This document shows positions 50,622 to 59,864 of a stretch of 64,000 bases of DNA, in pieces; position 1 is the first letter of the stretch, and every line of letters starts with the position of its first letter. The notes beneath the pieces were generated by a model. The model was not told where the DNA came from. It saw only the letters and a program-made list of their open reading frames with translations, and did no database searches. Origin of the DNA: an uncultured Chlamydiae bacterium (GTDB taxonomy: Bacteria > Chlamydiota > Chlamydiia > Chlamydiales > JAJFMA01); NCBI GenBank assembly GCA_963713615.1, contig CAVQMM010000001.1, positions 1,856,001 to 1,920,000 on the forward strand, given 5' to 3'. Position numbers and translations under genes: made by a program.

Positions 50622-53600
50622 TCAGTGCGCTTCACTTGCTTCTTTAAATACGTGGTCTAAAACGTGGCCATGATAAATACGTTGTTTGCTGGGCAACCAC
50701 TTGATGACTTTCTCAAGAAAGAGTTCTCTCAATAACTCGGGGTTATTGCTAGAGATCCACTTCTTTAAGAAGGGAAGCTCAGCTCGCCCGTAAGAAATAT
50801 CACCGCGATAGAATTGGGCTTGCATCTTAAGCTGTAGATATTCTGCACTTGTAAAAACCCCTGGAGGTAAAGGCTCTGAACCATCGATTTTTATTCCGGT
50901 ATCAATATTCACTAAAGAGAGTCTTACCTCTTTAGATTGGAAAGCAGCTAGGTCACTGGAACGCCGCTCAGCGATCAGCTGATTTTCAACCTGACGCGCA
51001 TCATAAGGTGAAAGCATCACCACTTGGAGATCATTAGTCACTTTGTCCTGTATAACTAATAGATCCGTGATCGCATCACGGTACCTGCCAAAAGGTCCAT
51101 ATAGATCCCCATTTTTTGCAATCCACGAAGGACGCACAAGATTTGACGTCAAATACAGAGCGGGATTGAATGCCGAGGCGAATTCTTTAGGAAATCCATG
51201 ATGACTGAGCAGCTGGGCAACGCTCTCAAATTCCACTGAATTTGCCCCCAAACCTATCTGCTTGCTTATGGAAAGATCATAATACTCCCGGCTCAGTAAT
51301 CCATCACAATGCCAAGGAAGTCTAGGCATGAAGGGTTCTGAGGGCCATGGTATGGAGGTTAGCTTCTCTTGTTCCTGCTCTTGCTCTTGCTCTTGTTCCT
51401 GCTCCTGCTCAGCTTGCAGTTCAACCTCTACTTCATGATCAAACAGATCCTGCTGTGAAATCATCAAAGTCATTTGGGGCAGCATTTCGTTTACGATATT
51501 CTGCATGTGCATAGACAGGTTGGAAGAGCAGGCAGCTTTCCACGCTTTGCCTTTTTCTAGATTCCTCCAAACGTTCATGAGAACTTCTTGAGCGGGTTTC
51601 ATTTGTTTCATGTGCCCATAAATATCACTAGGTTGGCGTGATAGGGAATGTTCGACAAGCTCACGAGCATCATCATACGTTTGAGCTGCAGCAAACACAT
51701 CTTCGTGCGTATCAATCAGCTTATTAAATAGCACCTTCAACACTTCACCTTCCATCTGATGCTTAGCTGCTCGATTGTTGTAATCAGCCTGCTTCAGAAC
51801 TAAACGACAGAAAGCGTACTGTAATAGATTGCCAAAGGTTAGCTGCTCCCCAACCTGTACGCCTGCCATTTTCAACAATGTATCCTCAATAATTTTGCGG
51901 CTTTCTTCAGAAACAACAAAAAAGACTGACTGACCCTGTCCCAATTTGCGCAAGCGCCAGACAGACTGCAATAGATCTCTGAGAATATCATGACGCCCAA
52001 ACGTTGTAGCAGCGATCATCCCGCTGTGTACCGGAATGTCAGATCCGGTCGTGTGGGCTTGGTCCCAATAGACGACAAGAACGTCTTTAGGGATGTGGCA
52101 TTCCTTCAAAGAGACGATTCGATTTTGGTTTCTTTCTAGAACGACACGGTCTCCGCTTGGATCGTAAAACACCACCCCTTGAGAATGGGGTGAATGTTTC
52201 AAAATAGCTCGTGCTATATTCTGAGCAGGCATACCTCGAAAAAGACCCGATTGATCAATCAAAGACCCGTCAAAACCACTGTCCTTAGCATAAATTTGTG
52301 CTACTAAGGCGTCCGCCATGTCGACTTCTTTGCCGCTTAGGCTGGAAACTTCTATGATATGACAGGCGTCTGGAGTCGTGTCCCAAAGAGTATAAAGAGT
52401 TCGTTCTTCTGTATCCGAAGGATATTTGGCGTCAAATATTCTTGGATAGGTACTCGCATTCCAAAGCGTTCCCGTAAAGCCATGGACCACATTAAAGAGA
52501 AAGCCATAAATTTGAGCGTTGGCATTCAACTGTTCCGAATGAGAGCGAAGATGCTGTAGAACATGTTTATGGATAACTCTCAAAACAGTAGCTGGCTTCT
52601 TGCTAATGTGTGCAGCTAATTGTTCATAGTCACTTTCCTTTACCGTCGCTATCTTTAGGTCGCTACCGGCAAACATCTCTGTGATATAAACTAGAGCTTT
52701 ATCGCGTGTCAGGGAGTCCTTGAGATGCTCCTTCAAGGCATCTAACTCGTTTGCAACAAGATTAGCTTTAAGGCCCTTCTCCAGCATCATCTGAATGGTA
52801 TAATTGATGATCTCAAGTTCAGTACCAAAGTCTGATCTTTCTGCTGGCCTCCCCAGATGATAAGGAATGGCTTGAAGTCGCTCCCTAGAAGGTCCGTAGT
52901 GCACAAAGAGATTCTTCCGGGCAGTGAGAGGCAATAAAGACGTCAGCTCCTCTTGAATAACGGCTAGAACATTTCGAACATGAACATTGGCAATCTTATC
53001 CACAAATTCGAAAGCCTCTGGGACCGACTCATTGGCTAGGTAAGCGCGTAACAATTTCTCAGGGCTGCAACTACTAACAAAAGGCTTTGTTAACAGTTTT
53101 TCCTGAGCGGTCCACGCAGTATTGCTAATGCTCTTTACAAAGGTTTGGAAAGATTCATCTTGAGATAAATAGCGGCCTTCTATCACTGCGTCAATGAGAA
53201 GGGGTTTTAACAGCGCATTGTAGTTATCGTCAGTGAAGGGAGAGGTCGCGCTTTGACCCAAAAATGGTAAGGGTAAAACAGTGGCTAAATCAGGGGTCAG
53301 CAGAAGCTCATATAGCCCCACGACTGCTGATAAGGTATCCTCATGAACAACGCGACTGTCACCCGTGGTAAAGTGATGCGACTTCAGAATATCCATGATG
53401 GCATCCACTTCGTCGATAATCACAACCCCCAGGGTTTTCAAGAGTCCAAAAATTTCCTGATAGACACGTATTGTCGCTTCATTTTCGATAACCTCCGAGG
53501 CTGATATTCCAGCAGATCGAAGCTCATGGTATTGCTTTAGCTTCATCAAAAAGTTCAGGTAGAGGCTTTGAATGCTACTATTGGACACCATGAGTACTCG

Positions 53601-59864: not shown

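Follow-up and report, generated by a model that had tools for sequence, protein, structure and literature searches.

A chlamydial DUF3638 giant protein with a predicted cysteine-protease-like head and a SecA-like motor, possibly an exported effector

The window analysed here is a stretch of 64,000 nucleotides (64 kb) from an uncultured Chlamydiae bacterium, whose genome amounts to 3.97 Mb in three contigs. A signature primer site of chlamydiae is present in two rRNA loci of this genome. At the position given in the initial annotation, the minus strand of the window carries a gene for a protein of 3080 amino acids that is free of stop codons (Table 1) and has two candidate start codons, GTG at 59864 and ATG at 59861. 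The neighbours are a gene for a Ham1-type pyrophosphatase on the opposite strand and, on the other side, a divergent pair of RNase Z-like and integrase-family genes; between them, the gene stands by itself. Matches of 151-210 bases to it are found in soil and peat contigs from four runs, with no differences in 17 of 18. Over the codons that follow N173 there is one such contig; its 11 bases on one side are too few for it to serve as independent confirmation of the loop. A reading of the locus as phage defence or a mobile element was left unsupported by PADLOC (no match for the four proteins checked), by PHROG (no useful match) and by a plasmid search with the N-terminal head (no match). The palindromes E and F, which had been said to bound the gene, are real hairpins; nevertheless, they belong to repeat families dispersed through the genome (77, 49 and 266 blastn matches), and thus their position on either side of the gene carries no meaning. 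Near the gene, Rfam gave no family at gathering score, and matches of miRNA models on one palindrome were below threshold.

Table 1. Features of the DUF3638 gene and its surroundings, in positions of the window (residue numbers are those of the protein).
Feature	Coordinates	Strand	Remarks
Whole gene, 3080 aa, uninterrupted by stop codons	50622..59864	minus	ORF translation
Predicted Sec signal peptide, aa 1-24	59793..59864	minus	Hydropathy and kin of the same branch
Cysteine-protease-like head (predicted), aa 38-340	58845..59753	minus	Fold like LegA15/AnkD and AnkH in the model
His153, at the start of a core strand	59406..59408	minus	Kept in 84/85 heads; placement from the model
Asn173, last residue of the adjacent strand	59346..59348	minus	Kept in 84/85 heads
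Gln253-Cys258 (Q-x-S-G-T-C), Cys starts a helix	59091..59108	minus	Q in 77/85, C in 83/85 heads
Middle region, aa 341-1899, without a family match	54168..58844	minus	aa 1030-1520 colinear with eukaryotic relatives
SecA-like SF2 motor (predicted), aa 1953-2779	51528..54008	minus	Comprises two nucleotide-binding domains, the insert and a long scaffold-like helix
Walker A GAGKT, aa 2007-2011	53832..53846	minus	G and K in 48/48 rows
Walker B DEVD, aa 2151-2154	53403..53414	minus	E in 48/48 rows
Insert of ~300 residues, Walker B to motif III	52482..53402	minus	SecA-like spacing
Motif VI QSVWRLR, aa 2633-2639	51948..51968	minus	Q and first R in 48/48 rows
Linker with EQ tract, aa 2806-2845	51330..51449	minus	Low confidence, pLDDT<50
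Conserved C-terminal alpha/beta domain, aa 2846-3080	50625..51329	minus	84/88 non-eukaryotic rows; confident model
Palindrome E, dispersed genome repeat	50468..50571		Arms 50468-50510/50529-50571; z -12
Palindrome region F, dispersed repeats of two types	60086..60215		Imperfect hairpin from 60086; cleaner one at 60159-60215

The gene is a real and intact member of the DUF3638 family of giant proteins, which is catalogued but unstudied. The Pfam model (PF12340) matches aa 1953-2174 at 71.3 bits against a gathering score of 31 (E 9e-20) and, together with the conserved motifs, this upholds the earlier assignment of the C-terminal part to a DUF3638 SF2 ATPase. All motifs named in that assignment were found again where it had placed them, that is, H153, N173, Q253 and C258 in the head, and GAGKT at 2007, DEVD at 2151, GFTGT at 2462, DQAHTTGSD at 2601, QSVWRLR at 2633 and the EQ tract at 2819 towards the C-terminus. 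In the motor, the Q motif, Walker A and B, and motifs III, V and VI are all intact, and across 48 aligned rows its catalytic residues are invariant or nearly so.

What the initial annotation had missed is the specific likeness of this motor to SecA, which is seen in a predicted model of aa 1900-3075 built from 48 sequences (pLDDT 87). In a Foldseek search with this model, SecA or SecA2 stands in each listed row through rank 19 (E 1e-8 to 2e-5, with low whole-model TM-scores, the best being 0.31), followed by DinG. The best SecA matches reach Z 17.6 (rmsd 4.6, 411 residues aligned) and Z 17.5 (rmsd 5.0, 441 aligned), about three points ahead of the best nucleic-acid motor, FANCM (Z 14.7). The alignments to SecA also extend past the second nucleotide-binding domain, covering SecA 64-816, and a helix of 40 residues lies behind that domain (model 778-817). 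From Walker B to motif III there are 312 residues here and 290 in the SecA of the same genome, as against 25-36 in four other helicases; the insert sits where SecA has its preprotein-binding domain. The contexts of Walker A and B are similar in the motor and in the genome's own SecA. By sequence profile, SecA was not significant (E 0.81 and 0.055) and two other helicases scored higher; the weak sequence matches of the motor are to XPD and PriA, and no SecA family model of Pfam or NCBIfam is listed for the protein. Judged by its modelled fold, the motor is likely a working SF2 ATPase of SecA-like build that moves polypeptides, without being a SecA.

The head was described in the initial annotation as a protease-like domain with a His-Asn-Cys arrangement resembling that of AnkD and AnkH, and this description stood up well. 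A model built from nine sequences (pLDDT 84) retrieves LegA15/AnkD and AnkH in Foldseek at E 3e-4 to 2e-3, with the next match at 0.6. A first structural comparison gave Z 16.5 for LegA15/AnkD (rmsd 3.9, 249 aligned) and Z 13.2 for AnkH (rmsd 4.9, 248 aligned), with the next structure at Z 9.2; a second gave Z 17.0 (rmsd 3.8) and Z 13.9 (rmsd 4.5), respectively, over about 250 residues. At the sequence level, head profiles had no significant match among solved structures. In the predicted secondary structure of the head, the His lies at the start of a strand, the Asn at the end of the next and the Cys at the start of a helix, a placement of the triad that is also described for AnkH (PMC6712400).

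The triad is not a chance pattern. In an alignment of 28 heads, H153, N173 and C258 are the only invariant columns, and the complete triad is present in 82 of 85 heads; Q253 is kept in 77 of the 85. Of these 85 heads, 57 were selected at E<1e-20, a selection that favours intact heads. Weaker head matches, such as P0022 and P0075, have lost it. The copy studied here departs from the family close to the triad, at Q152, in the loop after T174, and at A176 and Q180; it is also one of three heads among the 85 that miss the Gly two residues after the Asn. As a consequence, its own activity may be altered. The fold by itself does not fix the chemistry of the head either, since the triad of AnkH is required and yet no protease activity was seen in vitro (PMC6712400), while LegA15 is reported to be a GTPase that uses Q356 and C361 together with R291, K367 and R408 (PMC9757750). 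Two other counterparts were considered and rejected: Wimp1 of Waddlia is a 74 kDa RasGEF protein (PMC6925127), and proteins of the LegA7/YopT type have the reversed catalytic order Cys-His-Asn (PMC11423584).

Between head and motor, hydropathy gives no stop-transfer helix, and no internal repeats were found in aa 341-1900. An E/Q-rich stretch behind the motor is present in 16 of 19 rows and in 29 of 48.

The same genome holds seven full copies of the gene, namely the one studied and six paralogues of 3058-3619 aa. Alongside these, the motor alone makes up a paralogue of 1392 aa, the head alone is found in two proteins (630 and 626 aa), and two further copies are broken. Among 61 related genomes, the head profile matched in 36 and the motor profile in 35. 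More widely, DUF3638 exceeds its cut-off in 138 of 300 Chlamydiota genomes that are at least 90% complete and in none of 14 control genomes; nearly half of the chlamydial genomes covered thus contain such genes of 9 kb, often more than one, and fungi, algae, protists and giant viruses have relatives of them. Weaker DUF3638 matches in 18 of the 24 genomes of a small-genome genus (g38) were ordinary helicases in the four genomes checked, plus one other, and therefore only counts over the cut-off are used. Searching with the motor retrieved 92 proteins; those with a named source include proteins of Legionella, Neochlamydia, fungi and Chlamydomonas, and 29 loci in Myxococcota, Bdellovibrionota and unclassified deltaproteobacteria came to light in a scan of genomes. 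In all, the named carriers are chlamydiae, Legionella, these three bacterial groups, eukaryotes and giant viruses; no RNA holder of the family occurs among the matches listed, and the nearest named homologue is from a Chlamydiales bacterium. Across 36 loci, no neighbouring gene among those listed recurs other than housekeeping genes and insertion sequences.

The joining of a protease-like head to a DUF3638 ATPase, which the initial annotation had pointed out in this gene, is indeed present, but it is the normal build of the family and is neither new nor particular to this copy. Of the 92 proteins, 81 lie outside the eukaryote clade, with unnamed rows placed by the tree; together with the seven own paralogues they make up 88 rows, and 72 of these have the head. 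The distance of the head to Walker A stays near a median of 1950 residues (65 rows). A direct search with the head found one match among proteins of 1694-5390 aa and none among those of 593-2000 aa; the word filter of this search is weak, as 72 homologues recovered through the motor carry the head.

The resemblance to the eukaryotic relatives extends beyond the motor. Profiles of bacterial segments match ten rows of the eukaryote clade in the same order over aa 1030-1520 and 1900-2700; for instance, aa 1250-1520 matches eight of the ten at 20-92 bits and aa 2440-2700 matches all ten, while reversed controls stay below 0 bits. Two non-fungal rows of this clade match at the head too (33.5 bits; E 8e-5), without the triad. 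Between the head and the fungal DUF6606, hhalign gives 1.5% and E 0.034 in the expected register, with four fungal rows only, and no DUF6606 match over the cut-off occurs in this genome. In a viral library, the head fold has seven matches at E<=0.001. All of them are proteins of giant viruses; two bear the name DUF3638, and two are called 'ubiquitinyl hydrolase 1'.

The initial annotation had also proposed a Sec-type N-terminus, and export of the protein is indeed likely. The N-terminus is its most hydrophobic stretch (mean over 19 residues of 2.05, against at most 1.62 elsewhere), preceded by a basic residue and followed by NLSA-D. A rule that asks for a hydrophobic core after a basic residue is passed by 14 of 99 rows, all of them in the 19-row branch of the studied protein, and by none of the 80 outside it; this absence is telling, since 247 of 1529 ORFs of the genome pass the same rule. 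On visual inspection, a signal or lipoprotein peptide is recognisable in 17 of the 19. The branch has a support of 92 in a first FastTree tree; in a second tree of 67 rows (44 hand-picked from the first and 23 new loci), the 29 rows of the group lie on one side of a branch with support 77, rows having been dropped below 400 matched columns in the first tree and, among those added, below 500 in the second. A single origin of the signal peptide is thus neither shown nor rejected by the two supports. Rows from Myxococcota and Bdellovibrionota form an 18-row clade (support 97) among chlamydial rows, and several begin with lipoprotein-type peptides, so that on the tree the members with signal peptides appear to form a branch common to chlamydiae and to these lipoproteins. 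One relative has invasin-type Ig repeats, which also speaks for export. The members with signal peptides keep both catalytic sets and form a distinctive variant, in which likely export signals go together with intact active sites.

The genome also contains type II secretion genes, with gspE over the cut-off and a secretin 5 kb away, as well as a type III export gate. For comparison, CPAF of C. trachomatis is exported by Sec and then by type II secretion (PMC6717882). The N-termini of three paralogues without a signal peptide are hydrophilic and would be suitable for the type III route.

Taken together, we give a probability of about 0.5 to the reading that the studied protein is an exported effector. 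It would leave the bacterium by Sec and then by type II secretion; inside the host cell, the motor, predicted to be SecA-like, would take hold of target proteins and thread them, and the head cysteine would cut or covalently modify host proteins other than ubiquitin. Arrival in the host cytosol is what we infer from the motor's need for ATP, as the periplasm contains none; throughout the 19 rows of the signal-peptide branch, the motifs of the motor do not vary and, thus, it likely still encounters ATP. Its substrate would be a polypeptide rather than a nucleic acid, and motor and head would act in a coupled manner. In favour of an effector, both fold matches of the head are themselves host-delivered effectors. 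Running against it, head and motor also exist separately, as head-only and motor-only proteins, and in eukaryotic relatives the head is dead while the motor is retained. Furthermore, at 350 kDa, the protein would be an unusually large type II substrate. Even for CPAF, exit from the inclusion into the host cytosol is unexplained (PMC6717882).

The target of the head deserves separate consideration, as the initial annotation had suggested ubiquitin or ubiquitin-like modifiers. If the head were a deubiquitinase or deSUMOylase, the motor would hand it ubiquitinated substrates. Such a role would agree with the CE-clan-like order His-Asn-Gln-Cys, as most bacterial CE effectors target ubiquitin or SUMO (PMC13720258, section 4), and with the OTU domains fused to two of the 92 homologues (12 homologues rescanned) and an otubain match below the cut-off in a third. 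Nevertheless, we regard it as quite unlikely. The residue after the catalytic His is Ala in 64 and Ser in 12 of the 85 heads and aromatic in none, whereas the aromatic gatekeeper at this place in SnCE1, W191, is necessary for cleavage, and four of five CE-like proteins of Simkania are reported to be devoid of ubiquitin or ubiquitin-like activity (PMC10643670). RickCE, the best solved CE deubiquitinase in the Foldseek search, appears at rank 15 with E 1.3, and helical hairpins fill the Z lists. Some relatives do carry the name 'ubiquitinyl hydrolase 1', but it was assigned automatically and tests nothing, and the fungal proteins that bear it are without the triad motifs. This label on the family's database entries is put in question.

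Other readings differ in where the motor works and on what. An ATPase behind a signal peptide is an oddity that self-export would resolve: the signal peptide would enter SecYEG, the motor, still cytoplasmic, would push out the first 1900 residues, and the head would cut itself or a cargo free. The insert and scaffold-like helix that the modelled motor shares with SecA would fit this scheme, to which we assign a low probability, since the motor is kept in the 80 of 99 rows that lie outside the signal-peptide branch, among them every eukaryotic row, the family is present in giant viruses, and a stop-transfer helix is missing between head and motor. It is decidedly unlikely, in turn, that nucleic acids are what the motor translocates and that the head works by a non-proteolytic chemistry, for example acyl transfer or GTP hydrolysis. 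FANCM, DinG and RIG-I-like motors do come close behind SecA (Z 13-14.7), the weak matches to XPD and PriA point the same way, and LegA15 hydrolyses GTP with the matching Gln and Cys (PMC9757750). However, the insert after Walker B has the size of that in SecA, and the phosphate-binding pair of LegA15 (an Arg after the Asn and a Lys or Arg six residues after the Cys) is jointly present in none of the 85 heads; the residues at the GTP-binding positions here are T174 and I264. The His, kept in 84 of the 85, moreover mattered little for the GTPase activity of LegA15 (PMC9757750). Very improbable, finally, is a head that is weakened or dead in the studied copy, whose role would then be that of a motor and scaffold, as seems to be the case in the eukaryotic relatives. 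The departures around the triad would be in line with this, and six full paralogues provide redundancy; even so, H153, N173, Q253, G256 and C258 are all retained, and the head is 61% identical to that of the nearest paralogue, compared with 55% over the whole protein.

The effector reading may be part of a wider picture, which we put forward tentatively and consider on balance unlikely: the DUF3638 giants could be an ancient single-chain, ATP-driven protein processor, one branch of which became a weapon shared by chlamydiae and by predatory Myxococcota and Bdellovibrionota. A monomeric SecA-type motor, rather than an AAA+ ring, would thread polypeptides into the protein's own cysteine site; one branch would have acquired Sec and lipoprotein export signals, and eukaryotes would have retained the motor and lost the catalytic cysteine. 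To our knowledge, SecA is the lone SF2 ATPase that translocates proteins, a position that it would no longer hold if this motor moves polypeptides; as an exported ATPase, the protein would also belong to an unusual kind of effector. In the literature searched, with most subscription journals outside the search, we found no study devoted to the family. DUF3638 is mentioned in passing in print as a microsporidian gene family, for a predicted effector of the clubroot pathogen that is polymorphic, and for two new Tetrahymena genes; the first part of section 4 and section 9 of a 2026 review of bacterial ubiquitin effectors do not name it (PMC13720258). Bacterial copies with intact catalytic residues, which comprise a domain of 300 residues and a motor of 700, offer the first direct handle on the family.

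The head resembles CE-clan enzymes in the order His, Asn/Asp, Gln, Cys and in the location of these residues on the fold; in contrast to ChlaDUB1, SnCE1, XopD and RickCE, it has no aromatic gatekeeper, and it gives no significant fold or profile match to CE-clan deubiquitinases or deSUMOylases. With LegA15 it shares the order H-N-Q-C at close spacings (20 and 5 residues here, 22 and 5 in LegA15), although identity to LegA15 and AnkH is only 12-14%. These two are delivered by Dot/Icm, whereas the head studied here is fused to a motor behind a predicted signal peptide; ankyrin repeats are missing, while one paralogue has them. Among the DUF3638 giants (PF12340, with DUF3645, PF12359, and in fungi also DUF6606, PF20255), it is alike in its length of about 3000 aa and differs in having no DUF3645 or DUF6606 match. 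The triad is lost in the eukaryotic rows inspected and intact here, and the predicted signal peptide is a further difference.

As for the motor, the genome encodes a separate SecA of 1027 aa, from which it differs in being part of a giant protein with a signal peptide and in its motif VI, QxxxRxR. SecA-like domains are on record for effectors of Amoebophilus (PMC3482391) and for giant proteins of Omnitrophota, the latter with a proposal of self-export (bioRxiv 10.1101/2023.11.21.568195). Like the studied protein, these are divergent SecA-like domains, in giant proteins, of bacteria that depend on a host or prey. Nevertheless, the Omnitrophota and Amoebophilus proteins match SecA_DEAD profiles and the studied protein does not, and the many membrane helices of the Omnitrophota giants have no equivalent in it.

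In addition to full-length members, the source genome encodes shorter paralogues of the DUF3638 family, including proteins that carry only the His-Asn-Cys cysteine-protease-like head and one that lacks it. ORFs of approximately 450–650 aa with head matches are also recurrent among relatives. The head-only proteins (630 and 626 aa) are the easiest to assay, and broken family gene copies are found as well (see table).

Features of the window and the source genome (G000; contigs C1 and C2; L006–L009, loci of paralogues)
Feature	Location	Strand	Remarks
Head-only protein, 630 aa	L007:2320-4209	+	H-N-Q-C set intact, C-terminal
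Head-only protein, 626 aa	L008:2278-4155	-	H-N-Q-C set intact, C-terminal
Headless paralogue, 1392 aa	L009:6531-10706	+	Motor and C-terminal domain present
Paralogue, 3554 aa	L006:3528-14189	-	Ankyrin repeats N-terminal to head
Broken partial family gene copy	G000:C1:1124335-1125886		
Broken partial family gene copy	G000:C1:2185723-2188746		Adjoins intact relative
ORF, 2758 aa	G000:C1:3335524-3343800		Secretin domain close to C-terminus
Type III export-gate gene	G000:C2:13381-15480		Sole one in source genome
1937-aa protein	window 43483-49296	+	Signal-like start; three repeated modules
Palindromic repeats	window 49308-49477, 50468-50571, 60086-60225		Dispersed families (blastn)
tRNA gene	window 12019-12093	-	Overlaps two short ORFs

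Outside the chlamydiae, family members occur in Myxococcota and Bdellovibrionota (loci L063, L064, L069, L074, L075, L077, L078, and L083), where they form one clade placed among the chlamydial rows of the tree. Several have lipoprotein-type N-terminal starts, and these members may possibly be used against prey or protist hosts.

Regarding secretion genes, the type III export-gate gene is carried by a 16.8-kb contig and is absent from the main contig. Usual secretins are far shorter than the secretin-domain ORF.

The window's dispersed palindromic repeats belong to at least four families, each with 49–287 blastn matches in the source genome, a load that seems unusual in a chlamydia; in the first repeat listed, the 51-nt arms are perfectly complementary. 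In every module of the 1937-aa protein, a CarboxypepD_reg-like domain comes first, and after it lie His-rich motifs resembling a metal hydrolase. The two short ORFs overlapped by the tRNA gene are consequently doubtful.

Finally, in the 3554-aa paralogue, ankyrin repeats are followed by the head, an order identical to that of LegA15 and AnkH.
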